Of a stretch of DNA of 36,070 nucleotides, positions 11,547-31,858 are shown piece by piece. Made by a program: the position numbers and the translations under genes. How positions within the stretch are numbered: the first letter of the stretch is position 1; the number at the start of each line of letters is the position of its first letter. Origin of the DNA: a virus; the UHGV virus genome UHGV-1528002; one strand, 5' to 3'. The notes beneath the pieces were generated by a model that was given only the letters and a program-made list of their open reading frames with translations, ran no database searches and had not been told where the DNA came from.

Positions 11547-11877
11547 ATCAGCAGCAGAGCGCAAAGCCGCTCAGAGAGCCAGACAAGCTGCATCTGGTGT
11601 GCGTAAGCTGGAGATTGTGCTTGATGCTCAGGAAATTGAAATGCTGGAGCGTAACTGTGCCACACGTCGCCCCGGGCGTGCGCCTTACGAATTTGGTGAG
11701 TATATAGCGTTACTGATCCGCCAGGATGATGCACGCGTGCGCGGGCGTATAAAATCGATCAGCAGAAAACGTTGCGGTAAGTGCGGCGAGAGAGTTCCTG
11801 TGAATTCATGCCCGTGTAATGGTGACTCGCAATGCTGGGTGACTAAAGGCTGGCATGAAACGAAATTAATAGTGTGA
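11539..11877 (+). CDS. Hypothetical basic protein with C-terminal Cys4 zinc ribbon (candidate regulator)
   Basis: N-terminal basic helical segment (AERKAAQRARQAASGVRKLEIVLDAQEIEMLERN) and CGKCGERVPVNSCPC cluster; last gene before the late region. Confidence 0.45.
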   Translation: MAKSAAERKAAQRARQAASGVRKLEIVLDAQEIEMLERNCATRRPGRAPYEFGEYIALLIRQDDARVRGRIKSISRKRCGKCGERVPVNSCPCNGDSQCWVTKGWHETKLIV

Positions 11878-11885
11878 CATGTCAC
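11873..11885. repeat. Palindrome TGTGACATGTCAC, copy 1
   Basis: Perfect palindrome overlapping the stop codon of the upstream gene; same 13-mer at 14324 and 31845. Confidence 0.7.
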
Positions 11886-11894
11886 GAAGGTGTT

Positions 11895-12107
11895 ATGCCA
11901 AAAATACGCTACGACCTTGAAGATATGAGAGATAACTCAGCAAATTTTCCGAAAGAGGTTAAATTTCTCATGCATAAGTATGGTTGCGCCAGGAGGGATA
12001 TAGTTATCGACAGTCAGCACCCTTGCGGCGAGGATGTAATTTTCATTCGCGGTAAATGGGAAGGGTATCTTGACGAGAGTTTTTACGATGAATTTGATGG
12101 ACTTTGA
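11895..12107 (+). CDS. Hypothetical small protein in an AT-rich moron
   Basis: 70-aa ORF from ATG 11895 in a low-GC segment, preceded by the palindrome and followed by a terminator. Confidence 0.35.
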   Translation: MPKIRYDLEDMRDNSANFPKEVKFLMHKYGCARRDIVIDSQHPCGEDVIFIRGKWEGYLDESFYDEFDGL

Positions 12108-12112
12108 ATACT

Positions 12113-12139
12113 GCCGCCAACTATGGCGGCTTTATTTTG
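12113..12139 (+). terminator. Rho-independent terminator just upstream of the terminase genes
   Basis: GCCGCC-aactat-GGCGGC followed by TTTATTTTG. Confidence 0.6.
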
Positions 12140-12181
12140 CATGGTACTATTACCACAACGGTAACTATTACCAAGGTGGTT

Positions 12182-12778
12182 ATGATGCCTGCTGAACCTA
12201 AAACCTATAAACGCAAATCAACGCAATTTAAGCCACTAACAGCAATGCAGGAGGCTTATTGCCAGTCATACATCAAAACGCCTGAAAACCAGACTCAGGC
12301 AGCGATTAACGCAGGATTCTCCCCAAATACAGCGGCAGTTAAAGCCAGTGTCATGATGCGCGATGAACGCATTCAAAAACGGATTGCCGAGTTGATGGAG
12401 GAGCGCAACAAACGAATGCGCGTCAGTGCTGATTACGTTCTCATGCGCCTGGTGGAGATCGACCAGATGGACGTGATCGACATCCTCAACGACGATGGGA
12501 GCCTTAAACCAATCCGTGAGTGGCCGAAAATCTGGCGCACTACGCTTAGTGGCTTTGATCTGTCATCGACCATCATGAACATGAACGAGGATTCGATAGA
12601 GACAATCCTCAAAAAAATTAAATGGCCTGACAAGGTGAAGAACCTTGAGCTGATTGGTAAGCATGTTGATGTCAACGCGTTCAAAGAACGTCTGGATGTT
12701 AATGTGAATGTGACAATTGCTGATCGCATAGCAGCAGCCAGGAAGCGACTCAAAGAACGTCAGGATGGTAATCAGTGA
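12182..12778 (+). CDS. Terminase small subunit
   Basis: ATG 12182 behind AAGGTGG RBS (the track's longer ORF spans the terminator); AYCQSYIKTPENQTQAAINAGFSPNTAAVKAS matches the small-terminase pattern; overlaps the large subunit gene. Confidence 0.75.
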   Translation: MMPAEPKTYKRKSTQFKPLTAMQEAYCQSYIKTPENQTQAAINAGFSPNTAAVKASVMMRDERIQKRIAELMEERNKRMRVSADYVLMRLVEIDQMDVIDILNDDGSLKPIREWPKIWRTTLSGFDLSSTIMNMNEDSIETILKKIKWPDKVKNLELIGKHVDVNAFKERLDVNVNVTIADRIAAARKRLKERQDGNQ

Positions 12779-14250
12779 CAGATACAGCGTTATCTCCTGA
12801 AGAGCAGTTGATCGAGGATATTGCAGGGTTCACTCACGATCCGCTTGGTTATGCCCTCTATGCGTTCCCGTGGGGGGAAGAGGGGACTGAACTGGCACAT
12901 GCCACCGGTCCACGTCAGTGGCAGGCCGATGCGTTCCGAGAGATACGTGATCACCTGCAGAATCCAGAGACGCGCTATCAGCCGCTTATGCTGGCACGCG
13001 CTTCTGGTCACGGTATTGGTAAATCCGCATTCATCTCAATGCTGATCAACTGGGGCATGTCCACTTGCGAGGATTGTAAGGTCGTGGTGACCGCCAACAC
13101 CGACAACCAGCTACGAACGAAGACTTGGCCGGAAATTATCAAGTGGTCGAACCTTGCTATCACGAAAGACTGGTTTACCTGTACCGCTACCGCGATGTAC
13201 AGCAATGATCCTGGGCACGACAAGCGGTGGCGAGCTGACGCAATCCCCTGGTCTGAGCACAACACTGAGGCATTCGCCGGACTACACAACGAGCGCAAAC
13301 GCATCATCGTGGTATTCGATGAAGCGTCGAACATTGCGGATCTGGTGTGGGAAGTTGCCGAGGGTGCGCTAACGGACGAAGACACTGAGATTATCTGGGT
13401 GGCGTTCGGAAACCCGACGCGTAATACCGGACGTTTCCGCGAATGTTTCCGCAAATATAAACACCGCTGGAAAACTGCGCAGATTGACAGCCGGACGGTG
13501 GAAGGCACTAACAAACAGCAGTTGCAGAAATGGGTTGATGACTACGGGGAAGACAGCGACTTCGTTAAAATCCGTGTGCGCGGCATATTCCCGGATGCAT
13601 CTGAATTGCAGTTTATCCCTACCGGACTTACTGACGAGGCAATGAAACGGGTGGTCACCGCTGCGCAGGTTGCACATGCTCCGGTGATAATCGGCGTTGA
13701 CCCGGCATACTCAGGCGTTGATGATGCGGTGATATACCTGCGGCAGGGGCTGCACAGTAAGGTGCTGTGGACCGGCAACAAGACCACTGACGATCTGATT
13801 ATGGCAAAGCGTATCGCTGACTTTGAAGACCAGTATCAGGCTGACGCGGTGTTCATCGACTTCGGTTACGGAACTGGTCTGAAGTCAATCGGTGACGGCT
13901 GGGGTCGTACATGGCAACTTGTTCCGTTCGGTGGCGCGTCTACTGACCCGCAGATGCTCAATAAGCGCGGGGAGATGTTCAACTCATGCAAGACGTGGCT
14001 GAGGCTGGGCGGCATGCTTGATGACCAGGAAACAGCGGACGACCTGTCGGCGGCAGAGTACAAAGTTCGAGTGGACGGTAAAATCGTTATCGAACCGAAG
14101 GAAGATATCAAGGAGCGGCTTGGGCGTTCTCCTGGTAAAGGCGATGCGCTACTGCTGACGTTTGCGTTCCCTGTGTCGAAGCGTCTGCGAATTCCCGGGC
14201 AGCAGAACCAGCAAGGCAAGGCCATCACAGATTACGATCCATATGCTTAA
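12775..14250 (+). CDS. Terminase large subunit
   Basis: 491 aa; ATPase region (ARASGHGIGKS, VVFDEASN) and C-terminal nuclease region; position next to the small subunit. Confidence 0.85.
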   Translation: MTDTALSPEEQLIEDIAGFTHDPLGYALYAFPWGEEGTELAHATGPRQWQADAFREIRDHLQNPETRYQPLMLARASGHGIGKSAFISMLINWGMSTCEDCKVVVTANTDNQLRTKTWPEIIKWSNLAITKDWFTCTATAMYSNDPGHDKRWRADAIPWSEHNTEAFAGLHNERKRIIVVFDEASNIADLVWEVAEGALTDEDTEIIWVAFGNPTRNTGRFRECFRKYKHRWKTAQIDSRTVEGTNKQQLQKWVDDYGEDSDFVKIRVRGIFPDASELQFIPTGLTDEAMKRVVTAAQVAHAPVIIGVDPAYSGVDDAVIYLRQGLHSKVLWTGNKTTDDLIMAKRIADFEDQYQADAVFIDFGYGTGLKSIGDGWGRTWQLVPFGGASTDPQMLNKRGEMFNSCKTWLRLGGMLDDQETADDLSAAEYKVRVDGKIVIEPKEDIKERLGRSPGKGDALLLTFAFPVSKRLRIPGQQNQQGKAITDYDPYA

Positions 14251-14300
14251 TCCGCTGGTGGGGATAATGTCGTTGATATCCTCTGATGAGGATAAAACAA

Positions 14301-14323
14301 AGCCAGCTCATCGGCTGGCTGTT
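14301..14323. terminator. Bidirectional terminator-like hairpin between convergent genes
   Basis: AGCCAGC-tcatcg-GCTGGCT; T-rich tract on the minus strand (TTTGTTTTAT) and GTTTG on the plus strand. Confidence 0.5.
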
Positions 14324-14336
14324 TGTGACATGTCAC
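14324..14336. repeat. Palindrome TGTGACATGTCAC, copy 2
   Basis: Identical 13-mer; shares the extended flank ...GTCACG-GTGTTA with copy 1. Confidence 0.7.
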
Positions 14337-14340
14337 GGTG

Positions 14341-14760
14341 TTACTTAATGGCATTAAATCCAGCGTTGATGGCTTCCGCAATATTGATGGCACTTGTTTT
14401 ATCGAAGTGCCCATTCTGAATAAGCGCCGCATGCAGGCATTGTAACTTCATGTTGTATAAGTGTTCGCTCATGTAATCATGATCACTTTTTGCTTTAGCG
14501 TAAACAGCGCGAGAAATATCAAACATATCGCCTTTTTCCATTTCAGAACGTTGTGCTGTTATCCAGTCATGGAACGTAACGCTAGTACCATGGTCTTCGC
14601 TAAGAGTTAACCCGGCCAGTCCCTCACTCTGAATTACTTCGTAATGCATTTCATTACCAGCAAAAACGCCATAAAAAACGCAGTCTTCAGCCTGAACGAT
14701 ACGAGAATATTTTAATGGCCATTCATTTAGATACTTAGCCAACATATCAATTGTCTTCAT
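14341..14760 (-). CDS. Hypothetical protein (inverted moron between terminase and portal)
   Basis: 139-aa ORF opposite to the flanking late genes; AAGGTGAG RBS directly after a terminator hairpin. Confidence 0.5.
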   Translation of the reverse strand: MKTIDMLAKYLNEWPLKYSRIVQAEDCVFYGVFAGNEMHYEVIQSEGLAGLTLSEDHGTSVTFHDWITAQRSEMEKGDMFDISRAVYAKAKSDHDYMSEHLYNMKLQCLHAALIQNGHFDKTSAINIAEAINAGFNAIK

Positions 14761-14770
14761 AATCTCACCT

Positions 14771-14797
14771 TAAAAAAATGCCCGGACGAACCGGGCG
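14771..14797 (-). terminator. Rho-independent terminator between the tRNA and the moron gene
   Basis: Minus strand GCCCGG-ttcgt-CCGGGC followed by TTTTTTT. Confidence 0.6.
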
Positions 14798-14870
14798 AAC
14801 TGGAAGCAATGAGTTCTGCCTTCCGTGGCTGTACTGGTTTACAGCATGAAGTCATCGCAATGGCGTCCTG

Positions 14871-14916
14871 CTGTAAAAAGGGCGGTGATAGTCCTTCAAG
14901 GGAAACCATCACCGCC
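14871..14916 (-). terminator. Terminator-like long hairpin downstream of the tRNA
   Basis: Minus strand 9-bp stem GGCGGTGAT...ATCACCGCC with 18-nt loop followed by CTTTTT. Confidence 0.4.
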
Positions 14917-14959
14917 AAGCACCTGGAACTTCTGGCATCACGGTCCTTAGGCGTGATTC

Positions 14960-15036
14960 TGGCGTGGCATGCAGGATTCGAACCTGCGACCAACCGCTTA
15001 GAAGGCGGTTGCTCTGTCCAACTGAGCTAATGCCAC
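14960..15036 (-). tRNA. tRNA-Arg, anticodon UCU, CCA encoded
   Basis: Minus strand folds as a cloverleaf: acceptor GTGGCAT/ATGCCAC, D-stem GCTC/GAGC, anticodon stem ACCGC/GCGGT with loop CTTCTAA, T-arm GCAGG-TTCGAATC-CTGC, discriminator G plus CCA. Confidence 0.85.
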
Positions 15037-15358
15037 AACGCTGAGAGCACTTAGCCTGTTAAGGCGCCACACTTTGTCGCGGCTCCATAAATGCTCTCAT
15101 CGTTGTACCCTCGTCTCTTCCGAGGCGTCACACCGAATCGCCGGGATGGTGAATCCCCGTGCGCGGAATAAAACCGCTCGACTTGCACATTCCGGCTACC
15201 TGGTTCGTTTGCCCGAGCAAGGGAGGGTGCCCCTTAAACGTATCCAGACCGCTATCGGCGCATGTGCCATACGCCGTACTGCTCAAAATAAAAGCTCACT
15301 CCACCTGTTCAATTTAACGACAAGCCAGTCATGTTAGTAACCGGAATGAACTCTTTGG

Positions 15359-15373
15359 TTACCTCAAAGGTAA
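15359..15373. promoter_or_regulatory. Operator palindrome TTACCTCAAAGGTAA
   Basis: Exact consensus copy in the 427-bp non-coding region between the tRNA and the gp6.7-like gene; minus-strand flank AATTAT-TACCT as at PL. Confidence 0.45.
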
Positions 15374-15463
15374 TAATTCGCGCATTAAATGTCAACTGCC
15401 TACGATAAATAAATCATATGTGGTTAAATTGGTAATAATTTAATTGCGTACGGAGTCATTGAT

Positions 15464-15670
15464 ATGTGCATGGGTAGCTCACCATCAGTGCCTGCAACAC
15501 CAGAAGTTCAGGCAGCACCACAGGAGCAGGATGCCGCCGTTGTTGATGCCCGCGACGAAGAAACTCGTCGCCGTCGCGCTGCTGCTGGTCGTAGTTCTAC
15601 GCTGCTTACCGGTTCTCAGGGCGACACATCAACCGCTAAGACCAGCGGTAAAACGCTGCTTGGTCAGTAA
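15464..15670 (+). CDS. Small virion protein resembling T7 gp6.7
   Basis: 68 aa starting MC, Ser/Thr/Ala-rich with basic C-terminus; sits directly upstream of the portal gene as in T7. Confidence 0.5.
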   Translation: MCMGSSPSVPATPEVQAAPQEQDAAVVDARDEETRRRRAAAGRSSTLLTGSQGDTSTAKTSGKTLLGQ

Positions 15671-15684
15671 CCGGAGTCATTGAA

Positions 15685-17364
15685 ATGGCGGAAACAACTA
15701 AAGAGCGATTGAACAAACAGTTCGCACAACTTGAAAGCGAGCGTCAGTCGTTCGAGCCGCACTGGCGCGAGTTGAGTGATTACATCAACCCACGTGGTTC
15801 CCGCTTTCTGACTTCTGAGGTCAACCGTAACGATCGACGCAATACACGCATTATTGATTCGACCGGGACTATGGCGGCGCGCACTCTCGCCAGCGGCATG
15901 ATGTCAGGCATCACAAGCCCCGCGCGTCCGTGGTTTCGCCTGGCTACGCCAGATCCTGAAATGATGGATTATGGCCCTGTTAAGTTGTGGCTTGAGGCGG
16001 TGCAGAACCGCATGAACGATATGTTCAATAAGTCGAATCTCTACCAGTCTCTTCCGCAGTTATACGGAAGCCTCGGCACATACAGCACCGGTGCAATGGC
16101 GGTACTGGAGGATGACGAGGACATCATTCGCACAATGCCATTCCCGATAGGCAGTTACTACCTGGCTAACTCACCTCGTGGCAGTGTGGACACCTGTTTT
16201 CGCAAGTTCTCTATGACCGTTCGTCAGCTTGTTCAGGAGTTCGGGCTAAATAACGTCAGCGAATCCGTAAAAAGCATGTGGGAAAGCGGCACCTACGAGA
16301 AGTGGATTGAAGTGATGCATTCGGTTTACCCGAACATTGACCGCGATACATCGAAGCTGGATAGCAAGAACAAGCCATTCAAATCGGTTTATTACGAGGT
16401 TGGCGGTGATAACGACAAGTTGTTGCGTGAGTCCGGATTCGATGAGTTTCCAATTATGGCTCCGCGCTGGGAAGTTAATGGCGAAGATGTTTATGGATCA
16501 TCATGCCCGGGTATGCTGGCGCTTGGACCTGTTAAGGCATTGCAGCTTCTCCAGAAGCGCAAGTCGCAGTTGATTGATAAAGCCACCAATCCGCCGATGG
16601 TTGCTCCGACTTCCCTCAAGAATCAGCGCGCCTCCCTTCTTCCTGGCGACATCACGTATATCGATCAGATTACTGGTCAGGATGGATTCAGGCCTGCTTA
16701 TCTGGTTAACCCCAGTACAGCAGATTTGGTGGCAGACATTCAGGACACTCGTCAAATCATTAACAGCGCCTACTTTGTCGATCTGTTCATGATGTTGCAG
16801 AACATCAATACCCGCTCGATGCCTGTTGAAGCGGTGATCGAAATGAAAGAAGAAAAACTTCTGATGTTGGGGCCGGTTCTGGAGCGTCTGAACGACGAAT
16901 GTCTTAATCCTCTCATTGACCGCGCTTTCTCGATGATGGTGCGTAAAAACATGCTGCCGCCACCGCCTGACGCGATGGAAGGCATGCCCCTGAAGGTCGA
17001 ATACATTTCCGTCATGGCTCAGGCGCAGAAGTCTATCGGCCTGTCCAGTCTGGCGTCCACGGTTAACTTCATTGGTCAACTTGCGCAAGCGAAACCAGAA
17101 GCTCTCGACAAACTCAACGTTGATCAGGCGATCGATGCATTCGCTGATATGTCCGGAGTGTCTCCAACCGTCATTGTTCCGCAGGAACAGGTTGAGCAGG
17201 CTCGCCAGCAACGGGCACAGCAGCAACAGCAGCAACAAATGATGGCGATGGGGATGGCGGCGGCACAGGGTGTCAAGACGCTAAGTGAAGCTAAAACTTC
17301 GGATCCGAGTGTGTTGTCAGCTATGGCGAATGCAGTTAGTGGTCAGGGTGGGCAATCACAATGA
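15685..17364 (+). CDS. Portal (head-to-tail connector) protein, T7 gp8-like
   Basis: 559 aa; Gln-rich C-terminus QQRAQQQQQQQMMAMGMAAAQG parallels the T7 gp8 C-terminus; followed by scaffold and capsid genes. Confidence 0.8.
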   Translation: MAETTKERLNKQFAQLESERQSFEPHWRELSDYINPRGSRFLTSEVNRNDRRNTRIIDSTGTMAARTLASGMMSGITSPARPWFRLATPDPEMMDYGPVKLWLEAVQNRMNDMFNKSNLYQSLPQLYGSLGTYSTGAMAVLEDDEDIIRTMPFPIGSYYLANSPRGSVDTCFRKFSMTVRQLVQEFGLNNVSESVKSMWESGTYEKWIEVMHSVYPNIDRDTSKLDSKNKPFKSVYYEVGGDNDKLLRESGFDEFPIMAPRWEVNGEDVYGSSCPGMLALGPVKALQLLQKRKSQLIDKATNPPMVAPTSLKNQRASLLPGDITYIDQITGQDGFRPAYLVNPSTADLVADIQDTRQIINSAYFVDLFMMLQNINTRSMPVEAVIEMKEEKLLMLGPVLERLNDECLNPLIDRAFSMMVRKNMLPPPPDAMEGMPLKVEYISVMAQAQKSIGLSSLASTVNFIGQLAQAKPEALDKLNVDQAIDAFADMSGVSPTVIVPQEQVEQARQQRAQQQQQQQMMAMGMAAAQGVKTLSEAKTSDPSVLSAMANAVSGQGGQSQ

Positions 17365-17657
17365 CAGATTACGAAGACGATCAACTGAAAGAAGAAAACG
17401 CCCGTAAGCAACGTGACATGGCACAGCGTGAAATTGATGACATTCGCTTTGTCATGAGCAGTGAACAGGGGCGTCGCGTTGTCTGGTCGGTGCTGGAGAA
17501 AGGCCGTGTGTTTTCCGCTATCTCTCCGATGGATGCTATGGCAATGGCATTTAATGAGGGGCAACGCAATCTGGCGCTGGAACTGTTTCAGCGCGTTATG
17601 GCGCATTGCCCTGAACAGTATTTGAAGATGGCCAAAGAGGCCAGTGAACAGGAGTGA
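17361..17657 (+). CDS. Hypothetical head-module protein
   Basis: 98-aa ORF with ATGA overlap to portal; no recognised domain. Confidence 0.45.
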   Translation: MTDYEDDQLKEENARKQRDMAQREIDDIRFVMSSEQGRRVVWSVLEKGRVFSAISPMDAMAMAFNEGQRNLALELFQRVMAHCPEQYLKMAKEASEQE

Positions 17658-17659
17658 TC

Positions 17660-18355
17660 ATGAATTTATTTGAGCGTTTGCTGTATCGCCGTCTTTGCAA
17701 TGAGCAGCCAGTCGATGGTGGAGCAGCTCCGGCTGCGTCAGAACCGTCAGCGCCTGCAGGTGATACCCCTGCTCCAGTTGGTGATCCATCACAACAGGAA
17801 GGTGATAAGCCACAACCTGTTGCTGATGGCGATAAACCTGCTGATGACAAAAAGCCTGAAAACGATAAGCAGGATGAAAAAAAGGGTGGCGATAAACCAG
17901 AGGGTGCGCCTGAGAAGTACGAGTTTCAGGCTGCCGAAGGCGTAGAGCTGGATACAGAAGCGTTGAAGGAATTCGAGCCGGTGGCGCGAGAACTTAACCT
18001 GACCAACGAGCAAGCGCAAAAGCTGGTTGATGCTTATCCGAAGATTCTGGCAGGTGTTCAGCAGCGCCAGGCAGAAGCCTGGCAGAAAACAACCGAGCAG
18101 TGGGCTGCGGATGTAAAAGCTGACAAAGAAATCGGTGGCGACAAGTTGATTTCTAACCTTAGCGCCGCACAGCGTGCGCTTGACCAGTTCGGGACACCTG
18201 AACTCAAAGAATATCTGAACACCACCGGGCTGGGTAATCACCCTGATCTGGTCAAAACGTTCGTGAAAATCGGAAAGGCGATGTCTGAAGATGGCATGGT
18301 CACCGGTGGTAATGAAGGCCAGCGTAGTGCGGCCGAAGTGCTCTATGGCAAATAA
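17660..18355 (+). CDS. Scaffolding protein (T7 gp9-like position)
   Basis: Acidic Pro/Ala/Asp/Lys-rich N-terminal half, helical C-terminal half; ATG 17660 behind GGAG; between portal and major capsid. Confidence 0.55.
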   Translation: MNLFERLLYRRLCNEQPVDGGAAPAASEPSAPAGDTPAPVGDPSQQEGDKPQPVADGDKPADDKKPENDKQDEKKGGDKPEGAPEKYEFQAAEGVELDTEALKEFEPVARELNLTNEQAQKLVDAYPKILAGVQQRQAEAWQKTTEQWAADVKADKEIGGDKLISNLSAAQRALDQFGTPELKEYLNTTGLGNHPDLVKTFVKIGKAMSEDGMVTGGNEGQRSAAEVLYGK

Positions 18356-18363
18356 GAGAGGAA

Positions 18364-19356
18364 ATGACAATGTCTGTTAAAGGCTTAACTGCGCTAACGC
18401 TGGCTGACTGGGGTAAGCGCGTCGATCCAAACGGGAAAGTCGATAAGATTATCGAGCTTCTCGGTCAAACTAACCCGATCCTTCAGGATATGCCTTTTGT
18501 CGAAGGGAACCTTCCTACCGGACACCGAACCACCATTCGTTCTGGTTTACCTTCAGCTACCTGGCGTTTGCTGAACTATGGCGTACAGCCAAGCAAATCA
18601 ACCACAGTGCAGGTAACCGATTCCGTTGGCATGCTGGAAACCTATGCGGAAGTCGATAAGTCACTGGCTGATCTGAACGGCAATACCGCCGAATTCCGCC
18701 TGTCTGAAGACCGCGCATTTATTGAAGCGATGAATCAGCAGATGGCGCAGACGCTGTTTTATGGTGATTCCAGCGTTAACCCTCAGCAGTTTATGGGACT
18801 GTCCTCCCGCTATTCCAGCCTGTCTGCGGGTAATGCTCAGAACATCATTGATGCTGGTGGCACGGGTACAGATAACACCTCAATCTGGTTAGTGGTGTGG
18901 GGCGAAAACACCGTGCATGGCATCTTCCCGAAAGGGCAGAAGGCTGGCATCCAGATGGAAGATAAAGGCCAGGTGACACTGGAAGATGCTAATGGCGGCA
19001 AGTACGAAGGCTATCGCACCCATTACAAATGGGATAACGGACTTGCTCTGCGTGACTGGCGTTATGTTGTTCGCATTGCAAACATCGATGTCAGCAATCT
19101 TTCAGAACCTTCCTCTGCCGCAAATATTGCGAAGTTGATGGTTAAAGCACTGCATCGCATTCCAAACCGTGGCATGGGCCGCCCGGTGTTCTACATGAAC
19201 CGCACTGTAGGCCAGGCTCTTGATCTGCAGTCTCTGGAGAAAACATCTCTGGCGATTAGCGTAAAAGAGACTGAAGGCGAGTGGTGGACGTCATTCCGTG
19301 GTGTACCAATCCGTGAAACTGATGCGCTTCTGGAAACAGAAGCCCGCGTGGTGTAA
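18364..19356 (+). CDS. Major capsid protein, T7 gp10-like
   Basis: 330 aa; position after scaffold; resemblance to T7-type capsid proteins by recollection. Confidence 0.75.
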   Translation: MTMSVKGLTALTLADWGKRVDPNGKVDKIIELLGQTNPILQDMPFVEGNLPTGHRTTIRSGLPSATWRLLNYGVQPSKSTTVQVTDSVGMLETYAEVDKSLADLNGNTAEFRLSEDRAFIEAMNQQMAQTLFYGDSSVNPQQFMGLSSRYSSLSAGNAQNIIDAGGTGTDNTSIWLVVWGENTVHGIFPKGQKAGIQMEDKGQVTLEDANGGKYEGYRTHYKWDNGLALRDWRYVVRIANIDVSNLSEPSSAANIAKLMVKALHRIPNRGMGRPVFYMNRTVGQALDLQSLEKTSLAISVKETEGEWWTSFRGVPIRETDALLETEARVV

Positions 19357-19407
19357 CGCCTGTTATTAACCTGTGGGTCGTAACAGACCCACTAATGGAG
19401 AAAGAAG

Positions 19408-19845
19408 ATGATCACCGACAAACTGTTGATGTTCTCCGAAGCTCAGGCGGTTACGAATACCGCGGCTTCTACTGACGTAATCGATCTCGGTCCAATTGAC
19501 GGAAAACGTCGTGATATCGGCGTGGGTTACCCGCTTGAGTTTTGGGCGCTGGTTAACACAGCCGCCGCGGCAAGCGGTGATGCAACTGTAAACATCCAGT
19601 TGCAGACGAGTGAGAATAACAGCTCATGGACCACTATTTATGATAGTGGCGCACTGGCAAAGACCGCCCTGACAGCAGGTAAACGAGTTGTTTCTGCAAA
19701 GGTGCCTGCCGGTGTTCAGCGATATCTGCGTGTTAACTACTCCGTCGCAACTGGCCCACTAACGGCTGGCGAATTCACTGCTGGTATCAGTCTTGATGTT
19801 GATGCCAATACGCCGTATCCGATCCGCTCAAAAGTAACTGGTTAA
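19408..19845 (+). CDS. Hypothetical structural protein (possible capsid decoration/minor capsid)
   Basis: 145-aa ORF with good RBS directly after the major capsid gene. Confidence 0.45.
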   Translation: MITDKLLMFSEAQAVTNTAASTDVIDLGPIDGKRRDIGVGYPLEFWALVNTAAAASGDATVNIQLQTSENNSSWTTIYDSGALAKTALTAGKRVVSAKVPAGVQRYLRVNYSVATGPLTAGEFTAGISLDVDANTPYPIRSKVTG

Positions 19846-19846
19846 G

Positions 19847-20191: not shown

Positions 20192-20208
20192 GCCTCGCGA
20201 ATCAGACA

Positions 20209-20229
20209 AGGGGCTTCGGCCCCTTTATT
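20209..20229 (+). terminator. Rho-independent terminator after the capsid gene block
   Basis: AGGGGC-ttcg-GCCCCT followed by TTATT; same position as the terminator after gene 10 in T7. Confidence 0.65.
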
Positions 20230-23641: not shown

Positions 23642-24105
23642 TGATTGACGTTCAAATTATTCCCGCTACCGAAGAGCATCTTCAGATGATTTTGCCGGAT
23701 GTTCGTCAGGCTGATATTGACGAACTGTATGCGGTATCGCTGATGACTACCGAAGATGCGCTGCGTGTTGGTCTTCGCACTGCGACTATGGCCTGGTCAG
23801 GATTTGCGAACGGAGAACTGGTAACCATGTTTGGCGTATCTCCGGCGTCAATGATCGGTGGCAATGGTACGCCCTGGCTGGTAGGAACCAGCCGTATTGA
23901 AAAATATCAGAAGACATTTCTTCGCCACTGCCGCCCTGTATTGCAGCAGATGCTGGCAGTTTATCCGCGCCTGGAAAACTACGTCGACGAGCGAAACCAT
24001 GTTGCCAAAGCATGGCTGCACTGGCTTGGATTCAGGCTTGAAGAAGCCGCGCCTTATGGTGCTCTTGGTCTTAATTTCCACAGATTTCACATGGAGAGAA
24101 AATAA
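23641..24105 (+). CDS. Putative internal virion protein (T7 gp13-like position)
   Basis: 154 aa between tail tube B and a gp14-like gene; assignment by position only. Confidence 0.4.
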   Translation: MIDVQIIPATEEHLQMILPDVRQADIDELYAVSLMTTEDALRVGLRTATMAWSGFANGELVTMFGVSPASMIGGNGTPWLVGTSRIEKYQKTFLRHCRPVLQQMLAVYPRLENYVDERNHVAKAWLHWLGFRLEEAAPYGALGLNFHRFHMERK

Positions 24106-24671
24106 TGTGTAACCCAGCCATCGCTTTGGTTGCCGTCACAGTGGCATCCACAGCCGCGTCAATGTACAGCCAGAGCAAGCAGGCAAAATACCAGTCAGCC
24201 ATAGCTGATCGGAATGCTGAAATTGCTGAAGCTCAGGCACAGGATTCAATCAATCGTGGGAATATTGAAGCGGATCAGCGTCGTCGTGAAATGCGTCAAC
24301 GCTCAGGTACTGCGGCGGCCACTATGGGGGCTACCGGTGCGGAATTAAGTAGCGGAACAGCTCTTGACGTTTTTGCGGATAATGCTCAGTTCGGCACTCT
24401 TGATGCGTTAACGACAGTGAATAATGCTCAGCGTGAGGCATATGGGTATCAGGTTCAGGGAATGAATGCTCAGGCACAGGGGGCTGCTGCTCAGTCGGCT
24501 GCTAAATCATCGATGACCAGCACTTTGTTAACGGCACCACTAAAAGCGTACGGTGCATATAAGTTGGGTGGCGGAAGTATCAATCCGATTAGTAAGCAAG
24601 GAAACACGCCAATGTTATCTAACTCAGGTTTTATGAATTCTGACTCCCGATTCAAAATAGGAGGTTACTGA
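24105..24671 (+). CDS. Internal virion protein B-like (T7 gp14-like)
   Basis: 188 aa starting MC, Ala/Gln/Ser-rich like T7 gp14. Confidence 0.5.
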   Translation: MCNPAIALVAVTVASTAASMYSQSKQAKYQSAIADRNAEIAEAQAQDSINRGNIEADQRRREMRQRSGTAAATMGATGAELSSGTALDVFADNAQFGTLDALTTVNNAQREAYGYQVQGMNAQAQGAAAQSAAKSSMTSTLLTAPLKAYGAYKLGGGSINPISKQGNTPMLSNSGFMNSDSRFKIGGY

Positions 24672-27292
24672 TGCCTGTTGTTCCTACTACATCCGGCCGC
24701 CAGGTGCAAAGTCGTGGTGTGCAAACCGGTGGTTTTCAGACCTTCGATGTTCCTCAAGCAGGTCAGGTGCTGGCGAATGTCGCAGATCAGTATGCGGTGG
24801 CATATGGTGAAGCCAGGCAGAAAGAGAATGTTGCTATGGTTCAGGAGGCATCCCTTAAACTCAGTCAGACAGGCAGCGATCTGCTGAATAACCCTGAAAC
24901 AGGTTTGCTTAACCTGAAAGGGAAAAATGCTATTGGAAAAGGTCAGGAGTATACGCAGCAGTTTGATGCTCAGGTCGAACAACTGGCTATGTCGCTGCCG
25001 GATGAACAGGCTCGTAATGCTTTCATGCAGCAGGCGCAGCAGCAGCGCATTCAGTTCACTACGCAGGCCGGGAGGTACGAAATAGGACAGGTTCGCCAGT
25101 ATGAGGCGGATATGCAGGATGCGACACTAAAAAACCTATCGATGCAGTTCCGTAACCCGACAATGGCAAACCAGGCAGGATTGAAGGCATATCATAGCAT
25201 CATCGCTTACGGCGAAGCCCACGGCCAGAGTCAGGAAGAGATTGAACAGAACTGGGTTTCGTGGCGCGAGAATGCCGCGAACGGTGCGGCGGAGGCGTGG
25301 TATGTGCCGATGTATCAACAGATGATGGGTCCGAACGGCAAGATTGAGGTAACCGATACACCGAGTGAGGCGCAGTTATTCTCTGCAATAATCTGGCAGG
25401 AGAGTGGCGGAAATCAGTACGGAAAGGACGGAACACCTCTGGTGTCGCCAAAAGGCGCTGTTGGCGTAGCGCAGGTGACGGAAGATACTGGCCCCGAAGC
25501 TGCCCGCCTTGCTGGCGTGCCGTGGGACCGAGATAAATGGTTGAATGACCCGCGCTATAATGCCCGCTTGGGGCAAGCTTATTTCGGCGCGCAGATGAAG
25601 AAATACGACAATAACCCGGTTCTGGCAGTAGCTGCCTATAACGCTGGCCCAGGAAAGGTTGACGGCTGGATTAAACAGATTGGCGATCCGCGCACAGGCG
25701 AAGTCAGTAACGCCCAGTTTGCCGCAGCTATCCCATACGACGAGACGCGCAATTATGTGGCAAAAGTAACTGGCAGTGCTGGAGCTATTCCTGGATCTGC
25801 GACGATGGAAAACCTCATCGCACAGCCATTCTGGAACGCCATGAGTCCGGACAAAAAGTCGCAGATGATGAGCAAGGTTGCTGGCATGTACGACATGCAG
25901 GCTTCAGCCGGTCGCGTTGCGCTACAGAGTCGAATGCAGGACGACCTATCCAAAATTGAGGCCGGTAAGCAGGTGACGCCTATTTCAGCGCACGAATGGG
26001 CCGCCGTTATGCCGCTTCAGGCAGCGCCTGCCGAGCGCCTGCAGATGGAAAAAACCTTCCAGCAATACCAGCAGGCAATGACGCTACAACCTGTTTATCA
26101 GACCATTATGCAGGGCAACGTCCAGCAAGGTACCGCCGCCGTGCAGGCAATGGCACCGCAGGAAAACGACTCTGACTTTAAATACAAAGCAGAGCTTTAT
26201 GCATCGGCAAAGGTCAAGCTTGGGCAGGTACTGAAGGCGCGGGAAGCGGATCCGGGGGCATGGCTGCAACAAAACTCTCCGGTTGTGCAGGCTGCATTCC
26301 AGCAGTACCTGAATGACCCTTCATCTGGTGAATACCTAGTTTCCCGCATACAGTCTGAAAAAGACCGCCTGGGGATAATGAGCAAAAAAGTTTTACCGGA
26401 GTCCATGGTCAACGACGTACTGCAGCGTATTGACAACACGCAGGAATCTAGCGTAAAGGCCATTCAGTCGGTGGCGCAGTCGTTCGGCAAATACTCGGAT
26501 CAGGTGATGCGGCAGGTGCAAAATAAAGCATTCCCAGCTTTAAAGGTTGTAATGTCTACAGAAAACCAACGGGCAGCAGATGCGTTGTGGCAAATACGGA
26601 ATGTACCTACTTCTGATTTGAGATCTGGTTTGGATAAAAACCAGGCAGACAGTGCAGACTCATCGTGGACAGATCAATTTAAAGATTTTTCTTCAACTCT
26701 TATTCCTCAGAGAAATGGTGCTGAAAACTGGACTATTTATAACGAGCAGGGAAAACGCTTGACCTACAACTACATGCAGCGCGGAATGTCGGCGTCTGAT
26801 GCAGCAAAACAGGCGTATCAGGACCTTCTCGGCGAGCAGTACCAGACCAATGGCACTTGGCGGCTACCTAATCGTGCAGGGGTAGATATTCGTGACGTTA
26901 ACGATGGTGCCAATGCGTATCTGAAAAACCTGTCAGCAGATCAGATTATGCCGCTTATTGGTGACCCAAGGCTACCTGATGAGGTCAACCGTGAGCAGAG
27001 TATCTCCCGCATTCGTGATAATGCGCAGTGGGTTACCAACAGCGACGAAACAGGACTTACCCTGATGCTCAACGGGCTGATCGTCAACGGTGCCGACGGC
27101 AACCCGATTACGGTGCCGTTCAACGATCTGGCGAAACTGGGAACAACCAACCGATCAGTATGGAACCGCATTACCAAGTTCATTGATACTCCGGTGAAAT
27201 ATACTCCCGGACAGTCTAAGGAATACAGCGCAGAAAGTCAGCGCGACAACCTGATTAACATTTTCCAGAACGGCCAGCAATCAGGACGATAA
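24671..27292 (+). CDS. Internal virion/ejection protein with lytic transglycosylase domain
   Basis: 873 aa; central IIWQESGGNQ...GAVGVAQV...AVAAYNAGPGKV is the SLT catalytic-domain pattern. Confidence 0.75.
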   Translation: MPVVPTTSGRQVQSRGVQTGGFQTFDVPQAGQVLANVADQYAVAYGEARQKENVAMVQEASLKLSQTGSDLLNNPETGLLNLKGKNAIGKGQEYTQQFDAQVEQLAMSLPDEQARNAFMQQAQQQRIQFTTQAGRYEIGQVRQYEADMQDATLKNLSMQFRNPTMANQAGLKAYHSIIAYGEAHGQSQEEIEQNWVSWRENAANGAAEAWYVPMYQQMMGPNGKIEVTDTPSEAQLFSAIIWQESGGNQYGKDGTPLVSPKGAVGVAQVTEDTGPEAARLAGVPWDRDKWLNDPRYNARLGQAYFGAQMKKYDNNPVLAVAAYNAGPGKVDGWIKQIGDPRTGEVSNAQFAAAIPYDETRNYVAKVTGSAGAIPGSATMENLIAQPFWNAMSPDKKSQMMSKVAGMYDMQASAGRVALQSRMQDDLSKIEAGKQVTPISAHEWAAVMPLQAAPAERLQMEKTFQQYQQAMTLQPVYQTIMQGNVQQGTAAVQAMAPQENDSDFKYKAELYASAKVKLGQVLKAREADPGAWLQQNSPVVQAAFQQYLNDPSSGEYLVSRIQSEKDRLGIMSKKVLPESMVNDVLQRIDNTQESSVKAIQSVAQSFGKYSDQVMRQVQNKAFPALKVVMSTENQRAADALWQIRNVPTSDLRSGLDKNQADSADSSWTDQFKDFSSTLIPQRNGAENWTIYNEQGKRLTYNYMQRGMSASDAAKQAYQDLLGEQYQTNGTWRLPNRAGVDIRDVNDGANAYLKNLSADQIMPLIGDPRLPDEVNREQSISRIRDNAQWVTNSDETGLTLMLNGLIVNGADGNPITVPFNDLAKLGTTNRSVWNRITKFIDTPVKYTPGQSKEYSAESQRDNLINIFQNGQQSGR

Positions 27293-27293
27293 C

Positions 27294-28991
27294 ATGCCAA
27301 TTTACACAGATGATCCGGGACAGGGCATTAACCAGCCAATTGGCAACGCGCCAGCAGGGCTTGGCGAATCGCTGCTTTCTTCCCTTAAGCAGGGATTTGA
27401 AGAGGGGCCGGTCATGTCCGGCTACCGCTTTGCGCAGGCCGACTCGCTGGCGAATGACCCAAACTCTACAGTTATCAGTAAGCAGGACGCAGATGAGCTC
27501 CTGAAGCAGTACGGCGTAAAGAGCATAAACGTGCCAGATTCTGGCGTTACGCAGGCTTTTCTCGATCATGTTATTGCCGAACGCAAAGATTCTCTGGCAC
27601 GCCAGCAGATTGCGATGTCGGCACCGAGCGGGTGGGTAGCCACGCCGCTTAATTTCGCAGCCAGCCTAGCTGGTTCAATGGCAGATCCTGGTAACGTGGC
27701 GCTGGCGCTGGTTCCGTTCGCTGGAGAAGCAAAGGCAGCTTCTGTGCTTGGCCGATTTGGCGAGCGATTTGTTGCTGGTGCACGCATGGGGGCAGCGCAG
27801 GCGGTGGTGACCGTGCCGCTTACCGGGCTGGCAGCGGCGGCGGAAGGTGACGACTTCACCTATAGCAACGCGTTGGAAAGTACTTTCTTTAACACGATGG
27901 CTGGCGGTCTAATGCATGCCGGCGGCGGCCTTATCGCCGATATCGTGCGACCGCGTCGCGTTCCCGATGCTGCAACGGGAGAGTCCCCGGCGTTTTCTGG
28001 CGATGCGCAGCCAACCCCGGTGATAACGCCTGACAACATTCCGGCGGGCGTGAATATCCCTGAGGTTGGCGCTAACGCAGATCTGGCGGCGGCCATTTCC
28101 AGTGAAGCGGAGAGCTACGCATACAGCCGGGCTTATGACGACGTGGTTCCTGACTATATGGCGCGCCAGCAGGAGTTACAGAGCGGGCAGATCGGTAACG
28201 TTGCCGACCTGCGTGCCGAGCTTGCGGCTAATCAACGTCATGCTGACTCGCTTGATGCGACGCTGCAACAGCGCACCAAAAAGTATCAGGGGAAGCGGAT
28301 GAAGTTTAAGGATGCGCGCTCTAGGGCACTGAAAGAGATTCAGGCCGAGAAAGACGCCATCGCTGCACGCAATCAGGAGATCAATACATCGCTGGAGCAG
28401 AACGCGACAGCAGAGCAGGCGCGCTGGCGCCAGTCTCAGATTTCCCGCGGCGAGATCCCCGACGACCTGAAAGTCACCATTTCCGAGCGTGCGCAGCAGA
28501 TCCTGGACGGCATGCAGATGTCGCCGGTCGCTGGCGCAGTTCGCACTGCCGCAAGCGCCATCAGGGATGCTGACTGGAACGTGAACCAGCAGGCGTATCG
28601 CGCTGCGCTGGCACACATGATGGAAGGACGTAGCCCAGATGTTGAGCCCTTCTATGAACTGCACAAACCAGCACTGCGTGAACGCGCCATCCATCGCATA
28701 CAGAACCCGGCACGGCAGGTTGATGAAACGGCTCGCCCAGCAAGCGAAACAGCCGATCGGGTTTATCAAGAAACGCAAAAGGCAGATCATGAAATTACCG
28801 CTGCCGCTGCAGACCTTGATAACGAGCTCAACCTGAGTAACGCCCTGCTTGACGATATCGCTGTCGATAACCCTGATCTTGCGACCACGTTGCGCCAGAA
28901 ACTCAATGATATTCGTGCCGACGCCAGCGACAATAGCATGAGCAACGCTTTCCGGGCATTTGCCGCCTGTATGATTAACCGGGGGATGTGA
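27294..28991 (+). CDS. Internal virion/ejection protein
   Basis: 565 aa, Ala-rich with a hydrophobic segment; position within the ejection-protein block. Confidence 0.5.
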   Translation: MPIYTDDPGQGINQPIGNAPAGLGESLLSSLKQGFEEGPVMSGYRFAQADSLANDPNSTVISKQDADELLKQYGVKSINVPDSGVTQAFLDHVIAERKDSLARQQIAMSAPSGWVATPLNFAASLAGSMADPGNVALALVPFAGEAKAASVLGRFGERFVAGARMGAAQAVVTVPLTGLAAAAEGDDFTYSNALESTFFNTMAGGLMHAGGGLIADIVRPRRVPDAATGESPAFSGDAQPTPVITPDNIPAGVNIPEVGANADLAAAISSEAESYAYSRAYDDVVPDYMARQQELQSGQIGNVADLRAELAANQRHADSLDATLQQRTKKYQGKRMKFKDARSRALKEIQAEKDAIAARNQEINTSLEQNATAEQARWRQSQISRGEIPDDLKVTISERAQQILDGMQMSPVAGAVRTAASAIRDADWNVNQQAYRAALAHMMEGRSPDVEPFYELHKPALRERAIHRIQNPARQVDETARPASETADRVYQETQKADHEITAAAADLDNELNLSNALLDDIAVDNPDLATTLRQKLNDIRADASDNSMSNAFRAFAACMINRGM

Positions 28992-31171
28992 TGGCAGCAA
29001 ACGAATTTTTGACGCAGTGCGAGCGCAGTGTAAATGCTGCCGCTGGTCGCGAGCTTTCTTCCGATGAGATGGAGTCGCTGGTGCGTGACATGAACGACAC
29101 CACTAGGCGAATTCTGGCGACCAATGAGGCGCTGTCTCTGGAAGAGGCCGCGATGCGCGCAGCGGAAGAACTGAGCAATGCCGATATGCTGGCAAAACAG
29201 ATTGAGGCTCGCAATAAGGCAATCAACGCCCGTATTGCCGCACAACGACTTAGAGAGCTTCGTACTATCTGGAAAGACCGCCCGGATATCGGGCTTGAAG
29301 CAATGCTGGTTGGCCGCAACGATGCGCGTATCGGCGCCCGCCGGTCGGTATCTTCGGAGGTGGCGCAACTGCGCGGCAAGTATCATTCCGGTATCAACTA
29401 CGATTTTGACCGTGCCGGGCTGGTGCAATTCATCGCCAGCGGCAGCAATGACCGGGAAATTGCCGATGCAATGTGGCGCATAGGGCGCGGGCAGTCAACT
29501 GACGGTATGACAAAGCAATCCGTAAGCGCTGCACAAATCATCATGAAATGGCAGGAAACTGCGCGTATTGATGAGAACCGCGCCGGGGCATGGATACGCA
29601 AAGAGCCGGGCTATATAGTGCGCCAGTCACACGACATCATGAAGATCCGCGCCGCAGGTTATGAAGCATGGCGAAATGCTATTCTCCCGCGCCTTGATGA
29701 GCGCACTTTTGACGGCGTGGCTGACCGCGAGCAGTTCATGCGTAACATTTATAACGGGCTGGCTTCCGGCGTGCATCTTACATCTGAAAAGCCCGATTGG
29801 ATGAATGGCTTTAAGGGATCGGCGAACGCAGCTAAACGCGCCAGCCAAGAGCGAATTTTGCACTTCAAAGATGGTATCTCGTGGCACGAGTACAACCAGC
29901 AATTCGGCACCGGCAGCCTGCGAGAAGCGCTGTTTGGTGGCTTAAACAGCGCTGCCCGCACAACGGGCATGATGCGCGTACTGGGCACTAACCCACAGAA
30001 CATGTTTAAGTACCTGACGGACACCATTGCTGAAGATATCAGCAAATCCGGAAGACCGGCAGCGTTGGCTGACTACATGACGAAGGTGCGTCGCATTAAC
30101 CGTACCGTAATGCCGCAGGTTGACGGCTCGCTAAATATTCCTGGCAGCGTAGGCTGGGCCAATGCGTCGGCGGCTGTACGCGGCTGGTTGCGTATGAGCC
30201 AGCTTGGTGGCGCGGTAATCTCATCGTTTAACGACGTGCCTATCGCCGCTACCGAGATGCGCTACCAAGGGCAGAATTTTATGCAGGCGTTGCTTGGTGC
30301 TATGAGAGGCCGCTTCACGCGTTACAACAGCGCGGAGCAGAAAGAGATCCTTTCCTCTAAGGGGATCAAGCCAACGCAGCGCGCTATCGCTGACGCACGC
30401 GATCAATTGGAAGGGCAGTTGCGCGGCTACATCCTTGACCGCCTGAATATCGCCATGTCAGAGCCTGGCGATCGCACGCAGGCGTTTATGAAGATGGGTA
30501 CGGTGCCAGGAACGGTGGCTGGGGAAGCAATACGATTCGCTGGTCAGTACAAATCGTTCACTGCAAGCTTCATGCAGAACGTGCTAGGACGCGAAGTATT
30601 CGGGCGTGGTTATATTCCTGCTGGGCTTGGTGAGTCGAAAACCGGATCGCTGACGAATGCGCTGCTACGTAACGGGAAGGGGGCTTTCCTTGGCGCTGCA
30701 AACCTCTTTGTCTGGGCGACTATGTTTGGTTATATCTCCATGCAGTCAAAACTCATGCTGAAAGGGCAAACACCACGCCCGGCAGATGCCAAGACGTTTC
30801 TCGCAGCCGCATCTCAGGGGGGCGGTCTTGGCATCTTGGGTGACTTCATGTTTGGCGAAGTCAATCGCATGGGGGCCGGGCCGGTTACGTCGCTAATGGG
30901 GCCGGCAGCATCGAACGCTGACAGCATTATCACGCTGCTCCAGCAGACCACGAGAGGGGATGCAGATTTGGGTGACTGGTATCGCACGGCACTTGACAAT
31001 ACGCCATTCCTCAACGTGTTCTGGCTTCGTACGGCGATGAATGGTTTAATATTGAACCGGATACAAGATGCCCTTGACCCAGGCTCTCTTGAGCGTTATC
31101 AGCGCCGTGTTGAGCGTGAGCAGGGTAACGAATTTCTGATCCCACCATCGCAGTTCATGCTAGGGAAGTAA
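28988..31171 (+). CDS. Internal virion/ejection protein (large)
   Basis: 727 aa, last large gene before the accessory island; ATGA overlap with the upstream gene. Confidence 0.5.
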   Translation: MMAANEFLTQCERSVNAAAGRELSSDEMESLVRDMNDTTRRILATNEALSLEEAAMRAAEELSNADMLAKQIEARNKAINARIAAQRLRELRTIWKDRPDIGLEAMLVGRNDARIGARRSVSSEVAQLRGKYHSGINYDFDRAGLVQFIASGSNDREIADAMWRIGRGQSTDGMTKQSVSAAQIIMKWQETARIDENRAGAWIRKEPGYIVRQSHDIMKIRAAGYEAWRNAILPRLDERTFDGVADREQFMRNIYNGLASGVHLTSEKPDWMNGFKGSANAAKRASQERILHFKDGISWHEYNQQFGTGSLREALFGGLNSAARTTGMMRVLGTNPQNMFKYLTDTIAEDISKSGRPAALADYMTKVRRINRTVMPQVDGSLNIPGSVGWANASAAVRGWLRMSQLGGAVISSFNDVPIAATEMRYQGQNFMQALLGAMRGRFTRYNSAEQKEILSSKGIKPTQRAIADARDQLEGQLRGYILDRLNIAMSEPGDRTQAFMKMGTVPGTVAGEAIRFAGQYKSFTASFMQNVLGREVFGRGYIPAGLGESKTGSLTNALLRNGKGAFLGAANLFVWATMFGYISMQSKLMLKGQTPRPADAKTFLAAASQGGGLGILGDFMFGEVNRMGAGPVTSLMGPAASNADSIITLLQQTTRGDADLGDWYRTALDNTPFLNVFWLRTAMNGLILNRIQDALDPGSLERYQRRVEREQGNEFLIPPSQFMLGK

Positions 31172-31172
31172 T

Positions 31173-31544
31173 ATGAACAGAATTATATTAATGATTATTC
31201 TTATGCTTTTAGTTGTAAAATCTTTTGCAGATACTACCTCACCGTTAATGATTCAGCCTAAAAATGGGGAAACACTGGAGGATTCTAAAAAGCATACAAT
31301 GGAATATTTTGGATGTATAAAAGGGCAGGCCGTAAAATACGCTAAGACAGGAGAAAGTGTTGATTCTATATCCAAAGCTTCGGTTGTGTCATGCGAGTCG
31401 TACATACAAAAGATTGCTGAATCAAATATATACTATTTAAATTCCTCTCAAGACGGTAAGCGGAAATTTATTGGAAGGCTTAAATCAGATGGTGAAAATT
31501 TAGCAACAAAATTTGCTATGGATGAAAAGCTAAAAAATAAATAG
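31173..31544 (+). CDS. Small secreted protein (signal peptide, 2 Cys), AT-rich moron
   Basis: N-terminal hydrophobic signal MNRIILMIILMLLVVKSFA then polar mature region; very AT-rich codon usage; starts 1 nt after the ejection-protein stop. Confidence 0.5.
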   Translation: MNRIILMIILMLLVVKSFADTTSPLMIQPKNGETLEDSKKHTMEYFGCIKGQAVKYAKTGESVDSISKASVVSCESYIQKIAESNIYYLNSSQDGKRKFIGRLKSDGENLATKFAMDEKLKNK

Positions 31545-31552
31545 GTGACTAC

Positions 31553-31849
31553 ATGCAAGCGATAGGATTCATTGTTTATATCGTCGTTGGTCTTTTTCAG
31601 TTGGCAGCAATTATGGCTGGGCTTGAATCATGGTGGGGATTGCACTGGATAATTGCAGCCCCCATTGCTTTCATCGTGAGCTATATTCCATTTGTTGGAG
31701 CGATTGTTGGTATGGTTGGCGCTGTGGATGTATGGCGGTGGGAGTGGTGGCAGGCTGGCCTTCTCTTCTTTGGTGGGATCATCTTTGCTATTGTCTGCGG
31801 TGGAATGTCATCATTTTTCGAATGGCTATCATTCAGAAAAAGAGTGTGA
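31553..31849 (+). CDS. Small integral membrane protein (3 predicted TM helices)
   Basis: 98 aa with three hydrophobic stretches and a basic C-terminus (FRKRV); AGGTGA RBS. Confidence 0.5.
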   Translation: MQAIGFIVYIVVGLFQLAAIMAGLESWWGLHWIIAAPIAFIVSYIPFVGAIVGMVGAVDVWRWEWWQAGLLFFGGIIFAIVCGGMSSFFEWLSFRKRV

Positions 31850-31858
31850 CATGTCACA
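31845..31858. repeat. Palindrome TGTGACATGTCACA, copy 3
   Basis: Perfect 14-bp palindrome overlapping the stop codon of the membrane-protein gene. Confidence 0.7.

Follow-up and report, generated by a model that had tools for sequence, protein, structure and literature searches.

Introduction

Known members of the ribbon-helix-helix (RHH) fold bind DNA as dimers, and an RHH dimer naturally reads short palindromes. Among the RHH repressors are Arc and Mnt of phage P22, CopG, MetJ, MazE and ParD, and their operators are short inverted repeats with conserved half-sites and a free centre. Here we analysed UHGV virus genome UHGV-1528002, a stretch of 36,070 nucleotides (its full length is called the window), which is a Uetakevirus (epsilon15/phiV10-like) prophage of E. 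coli. It carries three copies of a short palindrome, which in its generalised form across phages reads GTGAC-N2-GTCAC. The palindrome is most likely the DNA-binding site of a 112-amino acid (aa) protein encoded beside its first copy. Genes were identified through PHROG matches and through the records of phiV10 and epsilon15.

The phage protein is small like the RHH repressors and may share their beta-alpha-alpha core, and the palindrome has the layout of RHH operators. In contrast to these repressors, the protein has an additional basic helix at its N-terminus and, as predicted, a Cys-rich zinc ribbon at its C-terminus. The putative operator also overlaps the stop codon of its own gene, and the other copies are found at the 3' ends of operons and not at promoters. 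A further relevant system is MatP, the organiser of the Ter macrodomain in E. coli, with its site matS. The 13-bp matS, GTGAC-RNY-GTCAC, has a spacer of 3, whereas the spacer of the phage site is 2, and the palindrome is therefore not a matS site. No sequence relationship to MatP was found (hhalign probability 0.1%), so that homology of the two proteins is not indicated. MatP consists of a four-helix bundle, an RHH domain and a coiled coil, whereas the AlphaFold2 (AF2) model of the phage protein has a single N-terminal helix, a short C-terminal helix and the predicted zinc ribbon.

Similar in location are the boundary sequences of lambdoid phages ('bsq' in the Sf6 record), which are short conserved sequences at the border of conserved and exchangeable modules. 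Unlike the Sf6-type sequences, one and the same palindrome is found here at three junctions, it is linked to a gene for a predicted DNA-binding protein, and it also occurs in unrelated architectures and inside genes. Another dispersed multi-copy palindrome of the same genome, and a more abundant one, is TTACC-N5-GGTAA of epsilon15-like phages, whose sites are annotated as 'repressor' binding sites in the epsilon15 record (AY150271). The window has 11 copies (5158, 5220, 5932, 8263, 8325, 12150, 15359, 32834, 33878, 33971 and 35091), which mark the 5' (promoter) side of the early, terminase, structural, anti-repressor and tailspike units. They show that operators in many dispersed copies are in use in this group of phages. 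The GTGAC sites differ from them in sequence and in being at 3' ends, and the idea that the GTGAC palindrome is itself an epsilon15 'repressor' site was rejected, as those sites are a different palindrome (ATTACC-N4-5-GGTAAT).

A small RHH regulator with a palindromic operator is a familiar kind of system. New are the protein family, its predicted zinc ribbon, an operator that overlaps the stop codon of its gene, further copies at the 3' ends of operons and a sequence that equals matS minus one base. A full-text search of the literature library used, with the 12-mers and their variants, gave nothing relevant, the palindrome is not annotated in the GenBank records of epsilon15 and phiV10, and the paper on the Uetakevirus ZX5 covers the repressor, the anti-repressor and the integrase only.

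Copies of the palindrome

The copies of the palindrome and the gene next to the first of them are:

11873..11886: copy 1, TGTGACATGTCACG; holds the TGA of the candidate regulator gene; the ribosome-binding site (RBS) GAAGG and the ATG of a 70-aa open reading frame (ORF) come immediately after
14324..14337: copy 2, TGTGACATGTCACG; between the terminator hairpin behind the large-terminase gene (terL) and the TAA of an inverted 139-aa gene
31845..31858: copy 3, TGTGACATGTCACA; perfect 14-mer, holds the TGA of a 98-aa membrane-protein ORF and adjoins a terminator
17413..17424: one-mismatch copy, GTGACATGGCAC; in the small coding ORF 17361-17657 after the portal gene, status uncertain
11539..11877, plus strand: candidate cognate regulator, 112 aa; predicted ribbon-helix-helix and predicted C-terminal zinc ribbon

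The sequence TGTGACATGTCAC was found exactly at 11873-11885, 14324-14336 and 31845-31857, and only copy 3 extends to a full 14-mer perfect palindrome (31845-31858). No match to TGTGACATGTCAC was obtained in 100 dinucleotide-preserving shuffles of the window, and the repeat is thus real and non-random, as the original prediction, made from the letters of this DNA, had held. In a census of all 5-mer inverted repeats of the window with spacers of 0 to 8, the GTGAC/GTCAC pair occurred three times and with a spacer of 2 only; GTGAC/GTCAC repeats with a spacer of 3 were absent. Two further details of that prediction were confirmed. The TGA within GTGAC serves as stop codon of the upstream ORF at copy 1 (11536-11877) and at copy 3 (31553-31849), and copies 1 and 2 share the extended flank GTCACG..GGTGTTA. 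Of the relatives, phiV10, PAS61 and typing phage 9 have the one-mismatch copy as well, whereas none was found in epsilon15.

Copy 1 lies at the end of the last early-right gene; behind it, in this order, are the 70-aa accessory ORF, the terminator at 12113-12130 and terS. Copy 2 follows terL and copy 3 closes the structural operon. Terminators adjoin copies 2 and 3, and one is found downstream of copy 1. Known sites of host regulators were considered as well. The palindrome reads TGTGA-N4-TCACA in comparison to TGTGA-N6-TCACA of the CRP site; the spacing is indeed wrong for CRP, as had been pointed out before, and a CRP site was ruled out on inspection of the sequence, as was a LexA site.

Linkage of the palindrome to a candidate regulator gene

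The candidate regulator ORF is homologous to epsilon15 gp49, phiV10 p55 and N15 gene 46 and belongs to PHROG 536, which is labelled 'transcriptional regulator'. The small family has 212 clusters at 50% identity, spread over podo-, myo- and siphoviruses that infect enterobacteria, Vibrio and Aeromonas. We looked for the motif in phages ZF40, YenM 42.18, N15, Vibrio K233, Vibrio 10N and an Aeromonas phage, all picked solely for encoding a homologue. The myovirus ZF40 (homologue with 67% identity) has three exact GTGACATGTCAC sites, one of them 3 nt past the gene. The P2-like Yersinia phage YenM 42.18 has one exact and one one-mismatch copy, 33 bp apart, and K233 has three exact copies. In N15 (homologue with 35% identity) three copies of GTGAC(TG/CA)GTCAC were found, one holding the stop codon of gene 46, and in Vibrio 10N one of the two copies has the stop codon of the homologue inside. 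Aeromonas phage 85AhydR10PP (L208) carries the asymmetric variant GTGTCCGGTCAC three times (19904, 44302 and 46954). In ZF40 and N15 copies of the motif lie within coding genes, and in K233 and the Aeromonas phage copies immediately precede RBSs. Of all ORFs of the window, the gp49-like one alone has homologues in each of ZF40, YenM 42.18, N15 and K233, and the pairing of gene and site is found in many phages that are otherwise unrelated. Two well-known temperate phages taken as controls, P2 and Sf6, in which the homologue was not searched for, had no copy of the motif. The Aeromonas copies share one orientation, and each is followed at a distance of 1-4 nt by a Shine-Dalgarno sequence with an ATG; in one case the gene that follows directly is the regulator homologue.

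In a blind sample of eight distant family members, four have their TGA stop inside GTGAC-N2-GTCAC (L212, L215, L218 and L219), and one has two copies elsewhere in the locus. A gp49 homologue also adjoins the motif on several motif-bearing viral contigs that are unrelated to the window. Embedding of the stop codon recurs across lineages at about 30% identity. In 80 loci picked by protein similarity alone (1.29 Mb), 125 GTGAC-N2-GTCAC sites were counted against 1.2 expected; these loci are mostly close relatives of the window, and the count mainly reflects conservation within the genus. The spacer is 2 in every copy of every phage examined, whereas the central dinucleotide varies even inside one genome and the orientation relative to transcription is mixed. 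The free centre and the mixed orientation are what a symmetric dimer on duplex DNA would predict.

A scan for the 14-mer in one genome per species returned mostly chance matches over all phyla, with a homologue nearby at 3 of 120 loci, and was uninformative on a role in hosts. Tandem or clustered GTGAC/GTCACG half-sites were seen in unrelated sequences, namely a Candidatus Jettenia contig (L257, 200-247) and viral contigs L023, L042, L052, L057, L071 and L109; one such array has three GTGACATGTCAC copies with an 18-bp period. Such sequences are probably arrays of other binding sites in which this half-site is reused.

The candidate regulator protein

The gp49-like protein gave no significant sequence match in Pfam or PDB and no detectable homology to solved RHH proteins, and weak matches to NF008671 ('LexA regulated protein') were found for 19 of 63 family members. 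In the family alignment the N-terminus is basic, the core is conserved and the cysteines (a CxxC and two more) are invariant. A first AF2 model from a shallow alignment had a predicted local distance difference test (pLDDT) score of 64, and its Foldseek matches were meaningless, so it was discarded. With an alignment of 63 sequences the AlphaFold monomer reached a pLDDT of 92.8. In this model, residues 5-19, 30-42, 52-75 and 100-108 are helical, residues 21-29 are extended, and residues 78-99 form a Cys-rich loop that is predicted to be a zinc ribbon. The best structural matches of the model are RHH DNA binders, and on the basis of this fold we infer that an RHH dimer may read the GTGAC-N2-GTCAC palindrome.

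A proposed cognate operator at operon boundaries

We propose that the copies would act as double-stranded operators, GTGAC-N2-GTCAC, for a homodimer or higher oligomer of the 112-aa protein. Gene and site would form a cassette, with the TGA of the gene in the first half-site and one or two more copies elsewhere in the genome. Such a cognate gene-plus-operator cassette appears well supported by the sequences compared, and we infer that the 112-aa protein binds duplex DNA at these sites. The three copies of the window would mark the 3' boundaries of the early-right operon, of the terminase operon with the convergent inverted gene, and of the structural operon. Binding would control passage over these boundaries, as a roadblock or insulator against read-through into the next or the convergent unit. 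This last role is speculative, and was suggested because all three copies lie at the 3' borders of units, beside terminators, two of them between convergent units. We have moderate confidence in the explanation as a whole, a cognate operator of the phage's own regulator at operon boundaries. A binding site for a dimeric regulator was among the roles first put forward for the palindrome; it is now the best supported reading, with ORF 11539-11877 as the candidate.

Several results weigh against this explanation. Three of the eight distant homologue loci have no site in the available DNA, and several families of motif-bearing viral contigs have no homologue in their partial loci. The 3' end of an operon is an unusual place for a repressor or an activator. 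The contexts also vary between phages, from in-gene copies to copies before an RBS, so that the data do not fix the downstream mechanism, and the role may be independent of position. Moreover, the phage hosts may all have MatP, and host range alone does not speak against a host binder.

Other functions of a bound protein were rejected. Against an activator of late promoters, ZF40 and N15 have Q-like regulators of their own, and copies 2 and 3 have no promoter downstream; YenM 42.18, too, has a gene for a small regulator where P2 carries ogr. Against a helper of termination, the geometry suggests that a roadblock 3 nt past the hairpin would stall the polymerase before the hairpin is transcribed.

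If confirmed, the cognate operator would mean that a family so far labelled 'hypothetical', with epsilon15 gp49 and N15 gene 46 among its members, has an assigned fold and DNA target. The layout would be unusual, with an operator built into the regulator's own stop codon and more copies at operon ends.

Conservation in Uetakeviruses and exchange of accessory genes

The following features surround the three copies:

12113..12130, plus strand: intrinsic terminator downstream of copy 1; the 70-aa accessory gene (moron) intervenes, and in epsilon15 the distance to the palindrome is about 20 nt
14301..14320, minus strand: intrinsic terminator, with its hairpin 3 nt away from copy 2 and the T-tract on the side of the minus strand; compensatory stem changes in relatives
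31858..31875, plus strand: intrinsic terminator of the structural operon; begins at the final base of copy 3
11895..12107, plus strand: 70-aa accessory ORF, PHROG 1541, on the variable side of copy 1; absent or a remnant in PAS61, phiV10, epsilon15 and Tyrion
14341..14760, minus strand: inverted 139-aa gene, PHROG 4846, on the variable side of copy 2; unrelated replacements with the same TAA end in relatives
31553..31849, plus strand: 98-aa membrane-protein ORF, PHROG 3075, on the variable side of copy 3; other small genes in relatives

Epsilon15, phiV10, PAS61, typing phage 9 and Tyrion all have the invariant core GTGACATGTCAC where the window has it, namely at the stop codon of the last early-right gene, just past the large-terminase gene and at the end of the structural operon. 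Counterparts of copy 1 are at 39611 in epsilon15, at 12342 in PAS61 and, divided across the record ends, in Tyrion. Those of copy 2 are at 2261 (phiV10), 2141 (epsilon15), 14607 (PAS61) and 2702 (Tyrion), and those of copy 3 at 19492, 19516, 32673 and 20377 in the same order. Even conserved genes of epsilon15 share only about 80% identity with the window. Among the relatives on viral contigs, the palindrome is a 100%-conserved island with diverging flanks. Conservation drops directly after the palindrome at site 1 and directly before it at site 3. At site 2 it drops 7 nt past the palindrome, at the TAA of whichever inverted gene is present. On the variable side 13 (site 1), 8 (site 2) and 10 (site 3) unrelated flank families were counted. 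The copies do therefore stand at junctions of conserved and accessory segments, as initially noticed, and the palindrome is a short sequence conserved between phages right where homology stops.

The proposal that the palindrome is a signature of moron insertion was not supported. The same three positions are occupied in epsilon15, PAS61 and Tyrion, and copy 1 is kept there despite the lack of an intact 11895 moron. In PAS61-type phages the 11895 ORF was lost via an internal in-frame deletion, with both ORF ends remaining, and not by excision at the palindrome. Copies within coding genes of ZF40 and N15 likewise speak against an insertion mark. As the palindrome is kept without this ORF and the loss was internal, it looks like a fixed landmark of these genomes and not like the scar of a gene insertion. 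The comparison with moron-less relatives, which had been suggested as a check, was divided in its outcome: the palindrome is retained in them, contrary to what an insertion mark would predict, whereas the flanks do differ, as such a mark would allow. Accessory genes are swapped next to the site and its adjoining terminators because these stay conserved between otherwise diverged phages, and the site and terminators act as fixed points for the exchange. If confirmed, the cognate operator would also explain why Uetakeviruses exchange accessory genes at three fixed points.

The same junctions raise the question of a recombination element, either a linker or boundary sequence or a site-specific target for accessory-gene swaps. 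The collapse of conservation at the edge of the palindrome and the number of flank families are consistent with it, as are the equivalent ORFs of phiV10 and PAS61, which are annotated as RecE/RecT-type recombination genes, and the annotated lambdoid boundary sequences at module junctions. However, the positions of the palindrome are fixed whatever the neighbouring cargo, the PAS61-type loss left both ends of the ORF and was not an excision at the palindrome, and ZF40 and N15 have copies in conserved coding genes. In addition, no recombinase co-occurs with the motif among the homologues shared with ZF40, YenM 42.18, N15 and K233, and 12-14 bp is short for homologous exchange. We consider a recombination element unlikely. 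The mosaic junctions are real, but a role in exchange is more likely a by-product of conservation than the primary function. An integron attC-type site was rejected, the palindrome being only 12-14 bp and perfect and no recombinase co-occurring across lineages.

Comparison with MatP and other alternative explanations

Occupation of the site by a host protein, most obviously MatP, is quite unlikely. The half-sites are those of matS, GTGAC[AG]N[TC]GTCAC, and the E. coli consensus matS (GTGACATTGTCAC) equals the phage site plus one central base (T). The hosts of all motif-bearing phages are, as far as is known, from groups with MatP. A change of 1 bp in the spacing of half-sites normally abolishes binding of a dimer. 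Against a host binder stands the invariant spacer of 2, in place of 3, and a host factor would leave unexplained why one phage gene has the site at its stop codon in such distant lineages. Prophages have also been reported to avoid matS, which counts against MatP.

An RNA hairpin at the ends of cistrons or operons, which would stabilise 3' ends, aid the terminator or mask the RBS, is very unlikely. Copies 2 and 3 are indeed 0-3 nt from terminator hairpins, and a Shine-Dalgarno sequence directly follows the site at copy 1 of the window, at N15 gene 47, in one further family (L196) and in the Aeromonas phage. However, the fold of the palindrome is weak (-4 kcal/mol, z = -0.4), its stem never covaries whereas the stems of the adjoining terminators do, and the Aeromonas variant GTGACCGGACAC is unable to pair. 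Asymmetric centres moreover occur in mixed orientation relative to transcription. With its low folding energy and no T-tract of its own the palindrome is not an intrinsic terminator; the true terminators adjoin it. The suggestion in the original prediction of a hairpin acting on transcript 3' ends is weak on these grounds. A nut/boxB-type antitermination site was rejected on the weak hairpin, the lack of covariation and the mixed orientation.

A phage counterpart of MatP/matS is likewise very improbable. Here an RHH protein would bridge or loop dispersed 'matS-minus-one' sites, or interfere with MatP/MukBEF, and the system would serve the physical organisation of the genome and not promoter regulation. 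With its near-identity to matS, the site is a concrete lead to cross-talk that may exist between the phage and chromosome organisation in the host.

A packaging signal (pac-like), read or cut by terminase, is hardly credible: copy 1 is just upstream of terS in Uetakeviruses, one K233 copy is 31 nt upstream of terS and the dyad centre of copy 1 (GTGACA/TGTCAC) is precisely where the record of Enterobacter phage Tyrion (NC_031077) starts and ends, but there are three copies per genome with one in mid-genome, the copies of ZF40 and of N15 (with annotated 12-base sticky ends) are far from the terminase genes, the motif follows the RHH gene over phage types and not any shared packaging gene, and record ends are often arbitrary. 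The Tyrion record ends with ...GTGTGACA and begins with TGTCACG..., and the phiV10 record is cut at GTGTGA/CATGTTAC; these cuts could be arbitrary or a physical end.

Neighbouring features

Some observations concern the surroundings of the copies. The terminators at 31858-31875 and 34733-34750 have a near-identical stem (AGGCCGC....GCGGCCT), and the palindrome is found beside the first only. A tRNA-Arg (anticodon TCT) is found at 14960-15036 on the minus strand, within the block of inverted accessory genes that separates terL from the portal operon. In the region 12104-12184, the longest terS ORF, which is the one annotated in phiV10, has a TTG start inside the terminator hairpin, and the annotations of epsilon15 and typing phage 9 suggest that the true start is an ATG near 12185, past the TTACC operator. 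The Bro-N anti-repressor gene (32920-33615, minus strand) and its upstream ORF (33628-33966, minus strand) have homologues around N15 genes 30-32 (27064-28482), including the anti-repressor. A GTGAC-N2-GTCAC copy of N15 is located at 28550, just upstream of the gene 30-32 region, and in the window copy 3 is at the 3' end of this region.

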